From a virus (taxonomy: Duplodnaviria > Heunggongvirae > Uroviricota > Caudoviricetes), in the IMG/VR virus record IMGVR_UViG_2534681990_000031: a stretch of 39,588 bases of DNA; one strand, written 5' to 3'. Under the pieces are notes generated by a model that worked only from the letters and a program-made list of their open reading frames with translations, did no database searches and was not told the DNA's origin. The translations under genes were made by a program, and so were the position numbers. Below are positions 3,227 through 39,588 of the stretch, one piece after another. Numbering within the stretch: the first letter of the stretch is position 1; each line of letters opens with the position of its first letter.

Positions 3227-3472
3227 TTACATCATAGTACCGTCAGTTCCGGGCTGAACCGGCTCTGGTTGCTCTACGGGTTGAGGATCATTTTCCGTGC
3301 TGTTTTCAGCCGGAGAACGGCCAACCATTCGGGCCAGCACTTCATCAACATATGCGTCGATTTGTGCCTCAAAATCCTTGCGAACCTGCGCCTTCAGCAC
3401 GCGGTTCACTTCTTCAGAATAAAGTGCCTGTTTGACAAGCTCTTCAGTAACCGTGCCTTTAATCTCTGGCAT
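3227..3472 (-). CDS. hypothetical small charged protein (81 aa), cargo island
   Basis: Track ORF; AAAAGGAGAATATTC-ATG RBS; protein-like composition (MPEIKGTVTEELVKQALYSEEVNRVLKAQVRKDFEAQIDAYVDEVLARMV...). Confidence 0.5.
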   Translation of the reverse strand: MPEIKGTVTEELVKQALYSEEVNRVLKAQVRKDFEAQIDAYVDEVLARMVGRSPAENSTENDPQPVEQPEPVQPGTDGTMM

Positions 3473-3507
3473 GAATATTCTCCTTTTGCAGGTATATTGC
3501 CCCGTTA

Positions 3508-3690
3508 TCAGAGCGGGGTCGGGTCGTTTGGGGATGACGGTGCCTGTGCTGTTTTACTGAGTTTTTCAGCTGCCGCATCATCAATTTTACGGCGAATATA
3601 ATTTCTGATGACCTTATAACCACCGCTCACCAGATATAACGCACTGACCACAGCGCAGAAATAAAGCAGCATTGTATGAACGAATGTCAT
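3508..3690 (-). CDS. hypothetical small membrane protein (60 aa, one N-terminal TM helix then basic tail)
   Basis: Track ORF MTFVHTMLLYFCAVVSALYLVSGGYKVIRNYIRRKIDD...; AAGG RBS; immediately upstream of the 81-aa ORF. Confidence 0.45.
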   Translation of the reverse strand: MTFVHTMLLYFCAVVSALYLVSGGYKVIRNYIRRKIDDAAAEKLSKTAQAPSSPNDPTPL

Positions 3691-3803
3691 ATAACCTTAC
3701 CTTTGATATTGACTACATAATTCGTTATCGGGTAAAAACATCGAAGCGACTGATAACCACTCCTTCGGGAGTATTTTTATTTTCCTTTATGGGTTAGGTA
3801 GCT

Positions 3804-3838
3804 CCCGCCAGCCATATCATGACCGGCGGGATTTTTTT
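3804..3838 (+). terminator. GC stem (CCCGCC...GGCGGG) followed by T7 run, plus-strand terminator-like element overlapping esterase stop codon
   Basis: 6-bp stem with 15-nt loop then ATTTTTTTAT; T run is on the plus strand only; the loop is long for an intrinsic terminator. Confidence 0.3.
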
Positions 3839-5876
3839 ATTCTGTTACCGCTTTTTTCACTTCCACCACAATGCTGTCAATCAGCACCGGGTAAGTTGCA
3901 TTTTTTGTGATATCCGTTACGCGGAGTTTGTCCACCGGGAAAGTTCCTACTGGTGACTGCGTCAGGGTAAACGCGGCACCATCCTGACCATCAATAACCG
4001 GAATAACCTGAAGGCTGTTATTTCCTGCAAAACGGAAGGCCAGCGTATGCCATTCATTATCAAATGCACCAAAGGTTCCCAGTTTCTGGTTATTTGTTGC
4101 CACTTTTGCATTGTGGTACATCACATTCAGGTCTTTTGCGTCTGTCTGGATGTAGAACGATGCCAGCAGATTATTCCCTGCATCCCCTGTCAGGGTGACA
4201 CCCTGCGGCAGAGAGGAAACCGGCCAGTAAAGCCCCATGACATACTGGTTTGCCACCAGGTCGCCAGGTACTTTAAAACGACAACTGATTAAACCACCAT
4301 TTTTCAGCAGTTCAGCACCAGTACCGGCATCATGATCCAGATACCAAGATGATTTACCTGTTTCCTTGGTCAGTTTCATTGCCTTACCACCTGTGCCTCC
4401 TGCATCACTGATAATTTCAGCTTTACCGCCAGCCGGCTCCCAGCCCTGGGCTTTCAGATTTCCTTCTGACTCACTGACACGATAAGACAGCAGTGTTGTG
4501 GTTACTGCTTCAGTTTCTGAAGGTGACGGCACTGGTGCTTCAGTTTCAGAAGATGGAACATCGGCTTTTACTGTGGTTCGCCCCGCATGAGTCAGAACTG
4601 CCGTGGCCAGACGGTCGGAAATAATCCCACGACGTGCCCATGAACTGAAATGGCTGGCCCGGTCCGCAGATGTCCAGGTGGCGGCACTGTTACGCCACGT
4701 TGAGCCGTAATAACCAATGGATTCAATATCCGGGTCTTCTGCCGGATTGTTGGTGGGTACATTCGCGTCATTTTCATCTGTCATTAATGGAACGAAATGA
4801 ATGTTTTTATCTGTTTTGTTTTTGTAGCCGCCATAGATTGCCTGGTATGCCGGTTCATTTTTCTGTTTCCAGAAATACGTGGTATCGCCACAAATCCACG
4901 GAACGCCAGCAGCACTGCCACCGGTACACTGTTCCGCCTGTTCAGCCAGGTCTGCGCGGAATTTTTCCACCATCGCCAGAAACAGCGCGGAATGCTCCGT
5001 CGGCTTCGCATCAATATCAAACTCGCCCTGCATCCACACCACAGCAAGCAGGCGGTTTTTCGGGTTCTTCGCCAGTGCCGCTTTTGTCCGGCTGATTAAG
5101 TCCTTATACAGCGGCTTATCCACACCCCAGCGGGCTGAGTCCTCTGAAGCACCCGTGCTGTCACTGTACGTGCCGTCAGCACCCGCCGTGAATGCAGAAC
5201 CACCACGGCAGCAGGGAACCAGCAGAATCCCCGCATCTGCCGGAATAAACGGCAGCAGTTTTTTGGCAATGTGAAGCCCCTGACCCACGGTGCCATATTG
5301 CCCTTTAGCCACATCCGCTTTCGGGTGATTTTTTCCACTCATATCCTGCACATCATGCAGACAGTGGTCGGCCAGAATGATGTCGTTATACTGACAGGCT
5401 TTACCTCCCGGCGTGACTGTACTGCGACGGGCTAACTGCATAATACGCGGTTCGGGGCGGTCATATGTCTCCGGCAGTGGCAGACCTTCACCGTAAGCCA
5501 TACCGTTTGACTGACCAGCAAGAACCACCACGTAATACCAGGAAGGGGAGCTGGAAGCAGTTTCATTTCCTGACGGACGGGTATGTGTTTCAGCATTATC
5601 CCAGTCTGACGGTTCAGCAGTACCGGCAACATCAGCACTTAACGGAATGACCGCACCAATACCCGCTCCGGTAATTTCCACACTCGGATCACCGGATACT
5701 GGCCTTACCCACAGGCAATCCCGTGTATTAAAACTGATGAGACAGTCAGCAAATGTCATTCCTCCTTTTGTTTCGGCCGGAGGAAAGGGAGCCTCAAGAA
5801 ATGCCGCTGTACCACCGGAAACTTTAACAGTAAAGTTTCCGGGCATTGATGATAGTTGAACCCATTTGGACGTCAT
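3837..5876 (-). CDS. putative sialate O-acetylesterase-type SGNH/SASA hydrolase with C-terminal beta-rich (lectin-like) domain; NanS-p-like prophage cargo
   Basis: Track ORF 679 aa; VVVLAGQSNGMAYGEG (GQSN block I) and LLAVVWMQGEFD motifs typical of the SASA esterase family; S/T/P-rich linker PSSETEAPVPSPSETEA; sits between gin and com where Mu has no gene. Confidence 0.6.
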   Translation of the reverse strand: MTSKWVQLSSMPGNFTVKVSGGTAAFLEAPFPPAETKGGMTFADCLISFNTRDCLWVRPVSGDPSVEITGAGIGAVIPLSADVAGTAEPSDWDNAETHTRPSGNETASSSPSWYYVVVLAGQSNGMAYGEGLPLPETYDRPEPRIMQLARRSTVTPGGKACQYNDIILADHCLHDVQDMSGKNHPKADVAKGQYGTVGQGLHIAKKLLPFIPADAGILLVPCCRGGSAFTAGADGTYSDSTGASEDSARWGVDKPLYKDLISRTKAALAKNPKNRLLAVVWMQGEFDIDAKPTEHSALFLAMVEKFRADLAEQAEQCTGGSAAGVPWICGDTTYFWKQKNEPAYQAIYGGYKNKTDKNIHFVPLMTDENDANVPTNNPAEDPDIESIGYYGSTWRNSAATWTSADRASHFSSWARRGIISDRLATAVLTHAGRTTVKADVPSSETEAPVPSPSETEAVTTTLLSYRVSESEGNLKAQGWEPAGGKAEIISDAGGTGGKAMKLTKETGKSSWYLDHDAGTGAELLKNGGLISCRFKVPGDLVANQYVMGLYWPVSSLPQGVTLTGDAGNNLLASFYIQTDAKDLNVMYHNAKVATNNQKLGTFGAFDNEWHTLAFRFAGNNSLQVIPVIDGQDGAAFTLTQSPVGTFPVDKLRVTDITKNATYPVLIDSIVVEVKKAVTE

Positions 5877-34611: not shown

Positions 34612-35142
34612 TTATTTATTCAGTCCGGCGTCCTGTTCAAAAGGCTCGACATAAAAACTTTCAGCGCCTTTATTCACCTTAATACCGGCAATGCCTTTCA
34701 CTGCATCCGGCTCCGCTAGGACCGCTTCCTTGTTCACTTCCTCTTTCGTGCGGATGAATCGCTCAAGCCCCATACGGCGCAGCATTTCAATCACACCTTC
34801 CACATCACGGCTGACGCTGCATGATGGATTTCCCAGCCGCCATGACACTGTTCCGGTGGTCAGATTGGCTGTTTTGGTTTTGCCGCCGTTCGTCAGCTCA
34901 TCGCGGTTGGTTTTGCACCAGTCCTGAATCCCCTTAAAAAGCACTTTGATTTCTTTTTTAAGGTTTTCAATCTGCGGCGTATAACGGGCGGTGATTTCTG
35001 CCACTTCATCATTCATCGCCGTTTCCAGCCGTAGCGCCTCTCGCTGAATATCGCCCAGGGTACGGATATCGCGGCTGACTTCTTCGCGGGTCTGCGGTGC
35101 AGCCTCGGCTGCGGCCTTTAATTTTGTAACACGTTTAGCCAT
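34612..35142 (-). CDS. gam: Gam-like DNA-end binding protein (host nuclease inhibitor, Ku-like)
   Basis: MAKRVTKLKAAAEAAPQTREEVSRDIRTLGDIQREALRLETAMNDEVAEI...DELTNGGKTKTANLTTGTVSWR closely resembles recalled Mu Gam. Confidence 0.85.
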   Translation of the reverse strand: MAKRVTKLKAAAEAAPQTREEVSRDIRTLGDIQREALRLETAMNDEVAEITARYTPQIENLKKEIKVLFKGIQDWCKTNRDELTNGGKTKTANLTTGTVSWRLGNPSCSVSRDVEGVIEMLRRMGLERFIRTKEEVNKEAVLAEPDAVKGIAGIKVNKGAESFYVEPFEQDAGLNK

Positions 35143-35153
35143 TTTGTTTTTCC

Positions 35154-35447
35154 TTATTGCAGTGTGCCTGATGCTTTATGCACGCGGTGGCGTTTAATGA
35201 TGGCATCCGCCCCAAAAGCCTGTACAGATGCCTGAAATTCCGCTGAGAGAAACTGAATAATTTCAGGACTGTGATACTGGAGAATACTTGCATAAACGCC
35301 ACAGAGTGACGTCGGCCTGTTATTCGTATCACGTTCTGTTTTTACATCCACACCAATCTTTTCATGCACTTCAACACAGTCATTGCCTGCCGGTTTTTCG
35401 TCATGCGAAACATGCTTAAATTCAAAAATAACGCGTACTTTGCTCAT
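35154..35447 (-). CDS. hypothetical protein, paralog 2 of tandem pair (97 aa)
   Basis: Internal ATG of track ORF 35154..35474; N-terminus MSKVRVIFEFKHVSHDEK parallels neighbour MSKVVRIIFEYKEHVIHK; AGGGG RBS. Confidence 0.5.
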   Translation of the reverse strand: MSKVRVIFEFKHVSHDEKPAGNDCVEVHEKIGVDVKTERDTNNRPTSLCGVYASILQYHSPEIIQFLSAEFQASVQAFGADAIIKRHRVHKASGTLQ

Positions 35448-35451
35448 GGAA

Positions 35452-35724
35452 TTACCCCTGCTGATTAAATTCATTACCTTTAATAACCCCGGAACGCATG
35501 CTCATATCTTTCATGAGCGCACTGGCTTTCATTGCCACAAGTTCAGCAAAGTCTCTGCTTTCCGCGAGCATAACCACCCCAAAAATCATGGCGGGTCCAT
35601 CACCTTTCTGCTTTATCCCGGTTGAACGTATGTCCAGACTTACCCCCATGCGCACTGTTCCATCAGCGTTTTTATGGATAACGTGCTCCTTGTATTCGAA
35701 AATAATGCGTACGACTTTACTCAT
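35452..35724 (-). CDS. hypothetical protein, paralog 1 of tandem pair (90 aa)
   Basis: Track ORF; ATGA overlap with upstream ORF. Confidence 0.5.
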   Translation of the reverse strand: MSKVVRIIFEYKEHVIHKNADGTVRMGVSLDIRSTGIKQKGDGPAMIFGVVMLAESRDFAELVAMKASALMKDMSMRSGVIKGNEFNQQG

Positions 35725-35927
35725 CCTCTGGTCCTCGTTCTGTTTGGATAACTGACCCGGCGTCTGACCTCACGGCAGAACCGAATCATGGCATTAAAGG
35801 CTTCTTCCTCCGTCACCGCTTCCGGTATCCCCGGAACCAGTAACTGCTCCTGTTCATCACGTCCATGACGCGCCATAACCTCAATCACATGCCGTACCGT
35901 GGCAGGCTTTCCGGCAACTATCGGCAA
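35721..35927 (-). CDS. hypothetical small protein (<=68 aa)
   Basis: Track ORF with TTG first codon; internal GTG/ATG starts possible; weakly supported. Confidence 0.35.
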   Translation of the reverse strand: MPIVAGKPATVRHVIEVMARHGRDEQEQLLVPGIPEAVTEEEAFNAMIRFCREVRRRVSYPNRTRTRG

Positions 35928-36002
35928 TGCACCTTCCGGCAGGACGTAACCAAACTCAATAAGACCACTCGACCACGCCCATGCAATGAGATTTTTTTCA
36001 CC

Positions 36003-36269
36003 TCACACCTCCCAGTAAACCGTGCAGCCGCTGATGCGGGTGGCCTTCACACGGCGGCGCAGGCCGTTGGTCTGTATGGTGATTTCAATTTCACCGGTTC
36101 CCTGCACGTTGCCTACCGGCGGCGTGGTTTTCAGTGCAAAACGTTGCGGATAGCGCTTACTGCGTTCCAGTACCGCACCGGCAAGTTCGGTCAGACGGCG
36201 CGCGCTGTTCAGGGAGTCGAATAAATTCATTTTGTTACCGCAGGATTGCATATTCATATAACACCTCAT
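36003..36269 (-). CDS. hypothetical small protein (<=88 aa)
   Basis: Track ORF; ATG at 36269 abuts upstream stop; several in-frame Mets. Confidence 0.4.
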   Translation of the reverse strand: MRCYMNMQSCGNKMNLFDSLNSARRLTELAGAVLERSKRYPQRFALKTTPPVGNVQGTGEIEITIQTNGLRRRVKATRISGCTVYWEV

Positions 36270-36497
36270 TTAGCTGACTTGTTTCGCACCAACAGAACGG
36301 CATATTCCGCTGTAAACGTCTGTCGCACCTTCGCGATCAAGTCCGGCAGATATCACCATTCGTGTGCGGTCATTAAATTCAAAAAGTAAATCGCCACATT
36401 CTTTATTTTCGGCCAGTGAAATCACCTTCACGTTATCGAAATTAACCAGGTAAAAGCGTCCGTAAATATCAGGAATATTAAATACCGCCATAATCAC
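36270..36497 (-). CDS. small protein at the position of Mu kil (75 aa)
   Basis: Track ORF immediately downstream of B with ATGA overlap; function by position only. Confidence 0.45.
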   Translation of the reverse strand: MIMAVFNIPDIYGRFYLVNFDNVKVISLAENKECGDLLFEFNDRTRMVISAGLDREGATDVYSGICRSVGAKQVS

Positions 36498-37426
36498 ACC
36501 TGTGAGAGTAATTCAGGGTTGGTATAAACCTCTTTAAAGGCCGCATTAATATGTTTTTCTGTCAGCGCCGCGCCTTCACCGCTGGCGGTGAGCCACGCCT
36601 GGTTAAGCGTATGTGTCAGAACGCGTAACGCTCCCGGCTTTTCAGCGATAGCCTGCATGACGGCCAGCTCGGCCTCACCACTGATCCCCCACGCCCTGGC
36701 AATGGCCAGCACATCCGCCTTTTTGGCCTTGCGAAGTTGTTTTGTACGGGCAAGACGGCTGAACAGGCGCGATAAATCATCAAAGGCGCGGCGTCCACCT
36801 TTAAACAATCCGCGCGGGTTACCAATAAGCACCATCCCGATCCCCGTGGCGTCCTGAATTGCCCGGAGTTGCTCCAGACCGTCAATACCCAGATGATCCG
36901 CCTCATCCACAATCACCAGTCCACGCGTTCCCATCAGGCGACGGCGGATGGCGCGGGATAATGCCCCTTTGTTCGCGCGGGTGTAATCAATCCCCAGCGC
37001 ATCGGCCAGCTCCAGCAGACACTCCGTGACGCTGGAGTGCGCGGGTGACAGGGTGATCATCCAGGTGTTTGGTTGCTCCTGGCAGTAATTACGGGCAGTG
37101 GCCGTTTTACCCACACCCGGTACGCCCACAATAACGTTAATACAGCCCATCAGACGAACCGCCTGAAACAGTGCGCGCAGCTCCTGGACTGTCTGCGTTT
37201 CCACAAACTGCGGCGGTTCCGGCAGTGCGCTTTGTTTATTCCAGTTTTCATACCAGGAACGCAGGGAAGCAGCCACAGCGGCGTTATCGCCTTTATATTT
37301 CCCCTTGCGGAAAGCCGATAATGTGCCGTCGGAAATTCCCGCCTCTCTGGCGATGGCATACTGCGTCAGTACGCCGCCATCAATAAGTTCATCAATGGTC
37401 TTGATTACATCGTTAATATCAGTCAT
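36494..37426 (-). CDS. B: MuB-like AAA+ ATPase target-DNA activator
   Basis: 310 aa; N-terminal HTH (TQYAIAREAGISDGTLSAF), Walker A GVPGVGKT, Walker B LVIVDEADHL; strong similarity to recalled Mu B. Confidence 0.9.
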   Translation of the reverse strand: MTDINDVIKTIDELIDGGVLTQYAIAREAGISDGTLSAFRKGKYKGDNAAVAASLRSWYENWNKQSALPEPPQFVETQTVQELRALFQAVRLMGCINVIVGVPGVGKTATARNYCQEQPNTWMITLSPAHSSVTECLLELADALGIDYTRANKGALSRAIRRRLMGTRGLVIVDEADHLGIDGLEQLRAIQDATGIGMVLIGNPRGLFKGGRRAFDDLSRLFSRLARTKQLRKAKKADVLAIARAWGISGEAELAVMQAIAEKPGALRVLTHTLNQAWLTASGEGAALTEKHINAAFKEVYTNPELLSQV

Positions 37427-37464: not shown

Positions 37465-37498
37465 AACCTGAGTCGCCGCTCGGGTTATTTTTTTATTT
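37465..37498. other. hairpin with T7 run in A-B intergenic region
   Basis: AACCTGAG-TCGCCG-CTCGGGTT then ATTTTTTTATTT on plus strand; adjacent ATTTGATACC shares the right-end repeat motif. Confidence 0.3.
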
Positions 37499-39588
37499 CA
37501 GGCCAGCGGGTCATTTTCTTTTAATTTCGCTTCCAGCAACTGCAATCCCCGCTGGAAATTACGCTCGTATTCTTCATCAGGTTCATCGTCAGCGACCGGT
37601 TGCTGAACGGTCACCGTATTACCCACAGGGCGGTATATGTTTTCCAGCCAGGGCTCCTGCGGCTTGTGCTCCAGCACGTTGACAACCTCATCCTCGGCAT
37701 CACGGATTTTTTCCTCTGCGCGTTTACGCATGCCTTTAAGGCGTTGCTGCTGTTTGTAGTATTCCGCGCTGACCGGGAAGGCTTCGCGTTTATTGCCGTC
37801 CCATACCGCCTCGCAAATCACGCTGCCATCCAGGCGACGTACGGTAATTCGTTCGGCATCATGAATGTCATAGCTGATAAGCACCTTACGGCCATGCTCG
37901 TCACGCAGCTCGGGCGCGTAGTAAATATTATTCAGCCAGCGTATTTCACAGCGTCTTACAGGGCGTTCCACCATCGGCCGGAACATATCCCGCAGCTCAA
38001 CATCGGACAGCCATTCAATTTCCGTGTCCTCTTCCGCCAGGCGTTTTTTTCTGAACTCCGCCGGGCTGTAATGCTTGCCGTTCGGCTTCACCGGTAATTC
38101 ATCGTGCGGCCGGTTGTTGTACCACTCAACACCGTCACGAATGGCATCAATCAGTTCAGACCAGGACGGTAAATCACGCATCGCTGACTGCTGCCGGGCG
38201 TTCAGCCGTTTGCCCTGTTGCAGGGCAGTAAATGCCGAGCGTAAATCGCGGTTGGTTTTGCGTAACGTCTCGCGATCTGCACCTTTCCCGAAATAGGTGC
38301 GGTATTTACGGGCTATGCGCATCGGTAATGTGCGGTTAAGCCGTTCGATAATGCCTCGTCCCTGCGGATTACCGGCAATCCCGGTCGGGTGATTAATCCC
38401 CAGTCGCGGCAGTATCCCCACAACCTCCTTATCCAGGATGTCGGCGGTTTCCCCGGAGCCGTTATCCGAGTAATACAGAAACGGTTTGCCGTGATGGCGA
38501 ATGCCGTGCTGTATGGCACCGGCTACGGCGAAAACATTTTCAGCCAGGTCAAGGCTCCAGCCCACCACAAAGCGCGTGCCACCGTCGATAACAAAGGTCA
38601 CTTCCGGTGCAAATGGCCGACCGTGAACCGGGTGTGCGCATTTCAGCTTCATGCCGTGACCGTCACCAATCCAGACATAATTCACCGGCATTCTGGACCA
38701 GTCGCGGCGCGTGAATCCCTCAAGCTGGCGGTATTCACTGCCGGTCACCCGGCCTTTTTGTTTCACCACTTCCGGCAGTTTCTTCATTGCGCGGCGAATG
38801 GAGTCATAAGACGGCATGATATCGAGCATATAAGGCTCATTAGCGTGCCGGTGCTGCCATTCAGCGACAAAATCCTCGTAAGCCTCGGTCATTGGTCGGC
38901 CGTTTGACTGGCGATACTGCGCCAGAAATTCGGGCAGCCAGTTAATATCTTCGGCTTTTATTTCCTGGCGCTTACCCGGTGCCAGTAAAAGCAGGCGTTC
39001 AGCGGCGTTCTGCGCCTTGTTAAAGGCCGCAATCCAGCGTTTCAGCGTGATTTCACTTAACGCGCGGCTGTTTCCCTTTTTGGCGTTCGCCGTCTCAACC
39101 ATTGCCACAATGCGCTCGTCCAGCTGCGAACGTGCCAGGTTGTCAACGATAAACCGGATAGCCTTCGCACAGCTGAAACCAGGTTGTTGCGCGACTTTCA
39201 GAACTTCGCTGACGATCGCGATTCGTGCATCAGCCACCTGGCGCTGGTTTTCAGTCAGGGCATTAAGGCGTTCGACCATCAGTTGTGGTGATCCGCGATA
39301 TGCCTCCACCGCATCAACCACGGCAGGCGAGCGTCTGGCCTTTGTCACCACTGGAGCCGGTGATTCATCGACTTTTTGAGTCATCAGTTGCAGGGCGTAG
39401 CGTTCACGTAATGCCTGCTGCGTCACTTCAGGTAAACAGTCGATGCTGTATTCAGTTGCTTTAGAGCCTGAGCGACGACGGGAACAACAGCTTTTCCCTT
39501 GTACGTAACGTTGTAATGCCTGGCGAATACCTTTTGTTGTAGCAGGCATTCCGGGCGCGCCAATCAGTTCTTTTGCAATGACATACAT
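37498..39588 (-). CDS. A: Mu-type DDE transposase A (starts at window edge; possibly full length)
   Basis: 696 aa; N-terminus ELIGAPGMPATTKGIRQALQRY...KATEYSIDCLPEVTQQAL parallels recalled Mu A DNA-binding domain; central DDE/RNase-H-like region (WIGDGHGMKLK...YYSDNGSGE); ATG is the last codon of the window. Confidence 0.9.
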   Translation of the reverse strand: MYVIAKELIGAPGMPATTKGIRQALQRYVQGKSCCSRRRSGSKATEYSIDCLPEVTQQALRERYALQLMTQKVDESPAPVVTKARRSPAVVDAVEAYRGSPQLMVERLNALTENQRQVADARIAIVSEVLKVAQQPGFSCAKAIRFIVDNLARSQLDERIVAMVETANAKKGNSRALSEITLKRWIAAFNKAQNAAERLLLLAPGKRQEIKAEDINWLPEFLAQYRQSNGRPMTEAYEDFVAEWQHRHANEPYMLDIMPSYDSIRRAMKKLPEVVKQKGRVTGSEYRQLEGFTRRDWSRMPVNYVWIGDGHGMKLKCAHPVHGRPFAPEVTFVIDGGTRFVVGWSLDLAENVFAVAGAIQHGIRHHGKPFLYYSDNGSGETADILDKEVVGILPRLGINHPTGIAGNPQGRGIIERLNRTLPMRIARKYRTYFGKGADRETLRKTNRDLRSAFTALQQGKRLNARQQSAMRDLPSWSELIDAIRDGVEWYNNRPHDELPVKPNGKHYSPAEFRKKRLAEEDTEIEWLSDVELRDMFRPMVERPVRRCEIRWLNNIYYAPELRDEHGRKVLISYDIHDAERITVRRLDGSVICEAVWDGNKREAFPVSAEYYKQQQRLKGMRKRAEEKIRDAEDEVVNVLEHKPQEPWLENIYRPVGNTVTVQQPVADDEPDEEYERNFQRGLQLLEAKLKENDPLA

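Follow-up and report, generated by a model that had tools for sequence, protein, structure and literature searches.

Background

In bacteriophage Mu the part of the early operon that runs from gene B to gam is made up of small non-essential genes (kil, E5 to E8 and gam), of which Kil and Gam are host-directed early functions. Here we describe two adjacent small genes, g90 and g97, from the corresponding position of IMG/VR virus record IMGVR_UViG_2534681990_000031, a stretch of 39,588 nucleotides (nt) referred to below, at its full length, as the window. The window is a Mu-like prophage of the Escherichia coli O157 Sp18 type, and the minus strand carries its early genes as an operon. On this strand g90 (35452-35724; 90 amino acids (aa), beginning MSKVVRIIFEYKEHVIHK) is followed by g97 (35154-35447; 97 aa from the ATG at 35447, beginning MSKVRVIFEFKHVSHDEK), and the pair lies between B (36494-37426) and gam (34612-35142). 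The two genes are like the non-essential early genes of Mu in this B to gam position, in their tight packing and in their small size, but they are unlike them in sequence and none of the Mu genes is detectably homologous. A tblastn search of phage Mu for homologues returned nothing at E≤10, and a hidden Markov model (HMM) scan of the Mu open reading frames (ORFs) returned nothing either. Mu E6 (87 aa) gave a weak match to phrog_2230, the PHROGs family of g97 (E = 0.009), and homology to E6/gp7 (phrog_10252) was considered and rejected: by hhalign, a 15-sequence E6 alignment reached E = 0.28 against the g97 superfamily described below and E = 0.024 against g90, both scores (10.5 and 16.4, respectively) being inside the shuffle range. 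The gene before gam in Mu is E8, which encodes an unrelated helix-turn-helix (HTH)-like protein.

A second point of comparison is provided by the Mu-like phages of Pseudomonas (the JBD30/DMS3 group), in which anti-CRISPR loci lie among the late (head) genes and have both a promoter of their own and an HTH regulator, aca. These loci and the one described here are alike in that small proteins of unrelated appearance are encoded at a constant site flanked by conserved genes in a transposable phage, and in that the alleles are highly divergent, variable in copy number and exchanged by recombination. The g90 and g97 proteins have no sequence or structure similarity to anti-CRISPR proteins, so that the likeness is one of locus behaviour only. 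Unlike the anti-CRISPR loci, the g90/g97 slot is in the early operon, has no adjacent HTH gene (of the neighbours scanned only gam and a Gp11-like gene match Pfam families, neither of them HTH) and has no promoter-like site on its coding strand. The genes are tightly packed and neither promoter-like nor terminator-like sites were found on the minus strand between B and gam, which fits co-transcription from the early promoter. The locus may also be compared with the hypervariable 'accessory regions' of phage genomes that serve to find counter-defence genes. As in those regions, conserved flanks enclose a highly variable insert of small genes; in accessory regions, however, unrelated genes replace one another, whereas the inserts found here all belong to one family with a conserved N-terminus.

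Results

Paralogy of g90 and g97

Over its whole length g90 matches phrog_4107 (residues 1-90 on profile positions 1-90 of 90, E = 1.1e-61), and g97 matches phrog_2230 (residues 3-97 on profile positions 1-88 of 89, E = 6.2e-40). PHROGs keeps these families apart as unrelated and gives both as 'unknown function'. Neither protein has a match in Pfam, NCBIfam, PADLOC, PDB or BFVD, and literature searches returned no paper dealing with g90 or g97. A first-pass annotation of the window had pointed to adjacent genes of 90 and 97 aa that share an N-terminus and then diverge, and had read them as tandem paralogues; the ORFs and the N-termini are exactly as it described them, and the relationship that it suggested is borne out by the comparisons that follow.

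The two N-termini have the motif MSKV(V)R(I/V)IFE(Y/F)K in common, encoded by codons 1-12 of g90 (MSKVVRIIFEYK; 35689-35724) and codons 1-11 of g97 (MSKVRVIFEFK; 35415-35447). This segment corresponds to a conserved N-terminal strand found in the whole family. At the DNA level the two 5' ends agree in about 28 of 33 aligned positions, as counted on the alignment. In a direct comparison by BLASTP the proteins are 33% identical over 55 aa (E = 8e-4), and their local alignment score is reached by 6 of 5000 shuffles. The signal from the single sequences sits in the first ~17 residues; the score of the part that follows is reached by 631 of 5000 shuffles and is not significant.

Profile comparisons extend the similarity well beyond this segment. 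When narrow families were used, in which all members are at least 67% identical to the query and come from E. coli wherever the source names the organism, hhalign gave a probability of 82-86% (E = 1e-5 to 5e-6) over 44 columns. With the g90 family plus P0063, a g90 variant with 55% identity, set against the broad g97 superfamily the probability rises to 92.4% (E = 5.3e-7) over 76 colinear columns. The full-length score of 39.1 compares with a mean of 11.2 and a maximum of 18.8 among column shuffles, so that none of 200 shuffles reaches it. After the N-terminal motif was removed from both sides the profiles still align colinearly over 53 columns (90.2%, E = 1.6e-6), again with a score that no shuffle out of 200 attains. 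The first-pass annotation had allowed that the similarity might be confined by chance to a few N-terminal residues; it goes beyond both chance and the N-terminus. HMMER searches against a background of all ORFs of the loci detect each family with the other, since the superfamily profile matches g90 (E = 1.5e-5) and the g90 profile matches Salmonella alleles of the g97 family (E = 1e-6 and 1.7e-5). These Salmonella alleles bridge the two genes, combining a g90-like second strand and loop, 'VSxxxxSxGL...(G/S)P', with a g97-like helix. On the strength of the profile alignments, the HMMER cross-detection and the bridging Salmonella alleles we regard g90 and g97 as real, ancient and very distant paralogues over nearly their full length (~76 of 90 residues), a conclusion that these sequence comparisons support. 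Phrog_4107 and phrog_2230 would then merge into one superfamily, confined to Mu-like prophages of enterobacteria, as we propose here.

The two branches of the putative superfamily differ in their distribution. We found 41 close homologues of g90, all of them from E. coli where an organism is named. An exhaustive HMMER search with a joint profile added P0063 together with g97-like proteins of 93-98 aa that start MSNK(V/A)QVIFTFE. A scan of genome contigs revealed no further g90 relatives, nor did a scan of viral contigs with P0063. The g97 family, by a follow-up search, is widespread in Salmonella and is also found in Serratia and Klebsiella, with many allele classes; it falls into at least 12 clusters below 60% identity, and g97 aligns with its remote members at 99.2% (hhalign, E = 8e-20). 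A Salmonella gene of 90 aa that lies upstream of a g97-like gene was considered as a g90 orthologue and discarded, its translation being a homologue of the phrog_1518-family gene instead. A 106-aa version of the g97 ORF that starts at 35474 was likewise set aside, as neither the RefSeq annotation of relatives nor the family alignment supports it.

Copy number and position of the genes

Two motif scans of viral contigs yielded 42 loci, in which the early genes were mapped by tblastn. L020 apart, all loci of this set in which the slot is readable carry g90 and then g97. g97 without g90 is found in L020 and in E. coli CI5 (L001), and in these the sequence usually found ahead of g90 leads straight into the g97 ATG. 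Of 5426 complete E. coli genomes, 231 (~4%) contain the region. At least CI5, M1 and M3 among them have the single-copy form with a g97 allele of type B or A; the remaining ones listed are longer by 280-480 nt, a stretch that contains g90 either by itself or together with the upstream gene. Another Mu-like prophage, L048, carries the divergent g90 allele P0063 and then an ordinary g97. Six more loci (Salmonella L045, L047 and L072, Serratia L069, Klebsiella L070, and L073, the genera being those under which the sources list the proteins) have one family gene only, 8-10 nt upstream of gam or of a gene for a DUF3164 protein, which replaces gam in several of the six. Taken over every locus examined, in four genera, the slot of the family gene is fixed at 8-14 nt upstream of gam or DUF3164. 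g90 without g97 was not seen where the slot is readable (L043 ends inside the pair), and the window holds no third copy of the family.

A survey of copy number had been suggested for related prophages. In the loci read, tandem pairs are limited to the E. coli Sp18-like lineage, where almost all of the prophages examined have one, and the six loci from other genera and relatives have a single gene of the g97 family. The likeliest origin of the pair is an old tandem duplication after which the upstream copy diverged further. The rare single-copy form in E. coli could be ancestral, or it could be the result of a deletion between the two similar 5' ends. In CI5, M1 and M3 a spacer of ~74 nt is kept after kil (L001, 3346-3424; L020; L068, 1781-1854). 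What is left of the phrog_1518 gene at its 3' end and the g90 ribosome-binding region make up this spacer, which is joined to the g97 ATG, and such a fusion is the signature expected of recombination between similar g90 and g97 5' ends.

Cassette exchange and selection

g90 and g97 are the fastest-evolving genes of the early operon, with a protein-level rate 3-4 times that of their neighbours. The mean pairwise ratio of non-synonymous to synonymous change (dN/dS) among recovered alleles is 0.31 for g90 and 0.42 for g97, compared with 0.11 for B, 0.09 for kil, 0.12 for p68 (the phrog_1518-family gene), 0.09 for gam and 0.15 for gp11. The non-synonymous diversity (pN) is 0.126 for g97 and 0.060 for g90 as against 0.014-0.023 for B, gam and kil. 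In sub-regions of g90 and g97 dN/dS ranges from 0.13 to 0.51; the sole value above 1, for g97 codons 1-11, rests on one variable codon and almost no synonymous change. ORF lengths are held (87-91 aa for g90 alleles and 93-99 aa for alleles of the g97 family) even at 36-60% DNA identity, and we conclude that g90 and g97 are real coding genes under purifying, relaxed selection. The first-pass annotation had suggested diversifying selection. What stands of this is an allelic diversity far above that of the flanks and a fast rate of evolution; what does not is a dN/dS above 1, the gene-wide means being those just given.

The diversity is sharply delimited along the DNA. In identity profiles between prophages the flanks score 93-100%. 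Conservation extends through the first ~30-40 nt of g90 or g97, after which identity falls, to recover at the start of the next gene. Within the gene bodies DNA identity is 46-83% for g97 in E. coli, 56-76% for g90 between the window and L048, and 36-50% between Salmonella L045 and L047. The first ~38 nt of g90, for instance, are identical in the L048 allele, yet the proteins overall are just 55% identical. All four pairings of g90 and g97 allele types occur among 21 haplotypes, and the two genes have therefore been exchanged independently. Gene bodies are thus swapped between prophages as cassettes behind a conserved 5' end of ~30-40 nt, and the locus is a clean example of such exchange inside an operon.

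Synonymous diversity in g97 is 0.03 in codons 1-11 and 0.26-0.33 in the rest. It is also low in the first 12 codons of p75, kil, p68 and gp11, so that low early-codon diversity is common to several genes of the operon and not peculiar to g90 and g97. That the common 5' segment holds a dedicated RNA or DNA element was considered and is unlikely, because low diversity is widespread in the operon and the codons differ between genera. Despite these differing codons the N-terminal motif is about equally conserved between genera, which indicates constraint at the protein level rather than recent gene conversion.

Predicted structure and charge

AlphaFold2 (AF2) models of the two proteins, which predate the deeper superfamily alignment, have low confidence, with a predicted local distance difference test score (pLDDT) of 63 for g90 (strand-strand-strand-helix) and 54 for g97. 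Both models open with the same long beta-hairpin (E3-18/E24-38 in g90, E4-19/E25-39 in g97) and differ after residue 45. The g90 protein is basic, with an isoelectric point (pI) of 9.4, and g97 alleles have pI values of 4.9-7.0. This range of charge, 4.9-9.4, gives no support to an acidic DNA mimic like Ocr or ArdA.

Discussion

Possible function of the pair

From genomic position and evolutionary pattern we tentatively suggest, with a probability of roughly 0.4, that g90 and g97 encode small soluble early proteins that bind host factors through variable specificity surfaces, the tandem pair representing two specificities. The genes would be transcribed together with A and B as part of the early operon. 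Each of the two products would be a small soluble domain whose structural core is the conserved N-terminal strand (K-V-x-V-I-F-x-F-E), with its specificity in the variable surfaces of the hairpin, the loop and the helix. Soon after induction or infection each protein would bind and neutralise a host factor, for example a defence or DNA-metabolism protein, and a phage with the tandem pair would have two specificities instead of one. If the proteins are host-directed inhibitors, the family would offer a natural series of variants from which to map the host factor or defence that each one neutralises, as it comprises more than ten allele classes on one scaffold in near-isogenic prophages of a kind common in Shiga-toxin-producing E. 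coli.

Several observations weigh against this suggestion. In every sub-region large enough to measure the mean dN/dS is below 1, so that positive selection has not been demonstrated and relaxed constraint alone could explain the rate of change. Neither the fold nor the idea of a variable surface is established by AF2 models with pLDDT values of 63 and 54. The C-terminal third of the proteins, when compared by itself, gives a weak signal (E = 0.01). Finally, the invariant position by gam or DUF3164 could equally indicate a role internal to the phage.

We also considered a wider form of the host-factor proposal, which seems doubtful to us. The slot upstream of gam or DUF3164 would be an unrecognised hot spot for counter-defence or host takeover, occupied by one fold family in which the N-terminal strand serves as a scaffold and every divergent allele class acts against a host target of its own; with two classes in tandem, the E. 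coli lineage would cover twice the range. Whatever the function, which is still inferred, g90 and g97 are a modestly interesting family of accessory genes and not a new kind of system. What is new is the proposed superfamily link between two PHROG families, the fixed slot and the cassette behaviour.

Among the alternatives, the one that survives best, although we think it unlikely, is a role within the phage itself. The protein would then act as cofactor or modulator on the adjacent Gam or DUF3164, in a DNA-end or recombination function, or else on transposition and replication, and the second copy would be a sub-functionalised duplicate. The constant distance from gam or DUF3164 in four genera would fit such a role, as would the presence of a family gene in every prophage of the clade that was inspected. 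A protein that docks on a conserved phage partner is, however, expected to co-vary with it or to be conserved, yet the family gene is swapped for alleles that are 36-60% identical while the gam or DUF3164 genes beside it stay nearly identical, and Gam is highly conserved (dN/dS 0.09). Moreover, two unrelated genes (Gam, PF07352, and DUF3164) follow the same family, and phage Mu carries Gam but no detectable family member.

It is less probable still that g90 and g97 act as an obligate complex, a heterodimer of paralogues that forms one functional unit. The genes are adjacent, tightly packed and homologous, they probably share a fold, their charges are opposite or complementary (a basic g90 beside g97 alleles of lower pI), and g90 was not met without g97 at any readable slot. 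Against this, the six single-copy loci from other genera and relatives all have g97 unaccompanied by g90, and so do E. coli CI5, M1 and M3. The existence of all four allele-type combinations gives no sign of co-adaptation, and each gene has been swapped independently as its own cassette. A toxin-antitoxin pair was also considered and rejected, the genes being paralogous, g97 often occurring alone and PADLOC, a library of models for anti-phage defence systems, giving no match for either protein.

A further possibility is that g90 and g97 share a 5' segment only, through partial duplication, gene conversion, a recombination 'linker' or chance, and that their bodies are unrelated. The concentration of the single-sequence score in the first ~17 residues agrees with this, as does the near identity of the two 5' ends, and the low synonymous diversity of early codons in the operon is consistent with mosaic junctions at gene starts. 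The explanation is largely refuted by the alignment of the profiles from which the motif had been removed and by the Salmonella alleles that bridge the two genes; in addition, E. coli and Salmonella members resemble each other about as closely at the N-terminus, which points to long-term constraint on the protein and not to recent conversion. A last reading, in which a cryptic prophage carries these ORFs as decaying or non-functional filler, is largely excluded, for although several database copies are frameshifted or truncated and the gene immediately upstream is frameshifted in the window, both genes combine a dN/dS well below 1 with a good Shine-Dalgarno site, and start and ORF length are preserved in four genera across 36-60% nucleotide identity.

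Gene layout and allelic irregularities

The early genes of the window follow the order transposase A (37498-39588), B (MuB), a 75-aa gene, a kil-like gene (36003-36269), the phrog_1518-family gene p68 (35721-36001), g90, g97, gam and homologues of Mu gp10 and gp11. The gene gam encodes the host-nuclease inhibitor Gam (PF07352, E = 1.5e-41). The g90 start codon shares bases with the stop codon of the gene before it (ATGA), and g90, which ends with a TAA at 35452-35454, is separated from g97 by 4 nt. Each gene has its own Shine-Dalgarno sequence 7 nt before the ATG, GAGGA at 35732-35736 for g90 and AGGGG at 35455-35459 for g97.

In the window codon 50 of g97 (35299-35301) encodes Gly (SLCGVY), and nearly all other type-A alleles have Asp (SLCDVY); Gly50 looks like a private substitution at an otherwise conserved position. 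A minority of g90 and g97 copies in the database are frameshifted, truncated or fused (L007, L029 and L043; P0036, P0053, P0055 and P0070), which reflects either decay of some prophage copies or assembly errors.

Neighbouring genes and prophage context

The upstream neighbour of g90 matches phrog_1518 (E = 6.6e-27), which is labelled 'host nuclease inhibitor' in PHROGs; the Salmonella homologue has 90 aa. In the window this gene is frameshifted after its GTG start at a run of seven A residues (35992-35998), leaving a 27-aa peptide and, as the open remainder, a C-terminal ORF of 68 aa (35721-35927). In 21 related loci the run has eight A residues and the gene is intact at 93 aa, and one locus has nine. 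The frameshift takes away the usual ATGA stop/start overlap before g90, and may reflect a true mutation, slippage in the homopolymer or an error in sequencing. In many relatives (L002, L008, L012, L014, L018 and others) the interval between kil and g90 holds just the last ~22 codons of the phrog_1518 gene, so that this gene, too, varies across the lineage between presence, absence and truncation. An extra segment of ~420 nt lies between the 75-aa gene and kil in several loci, and in the Salmonella Mu-like prophage L047 a DDE_3 transposase (an insertion sequence element) is found between B and kil (3405-4418).

The DUF3164 (PF11363) protein that occupies the position of gam has 212 aa (L045, 5303-5941; L047, 5304-5942; L070, 4303-4941; L072, 4303-4941). 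Its flanks are kept, with a g97-family gene upstream and DUF5420 and Gp11 genes downstream, and this suggests that DUF3164 is a functional analogue of Gam.

The only records in the phage database that contain the region are LC727881.1 (69334-71435) and LC727895.1 (10302-12542). These are Stx1a- and Stx2c-converting phages (Stx, Shiga toxin) annotated with an inserted Mu-like phage, which indicates that Stx prophages have received a transposed Mu-like element.
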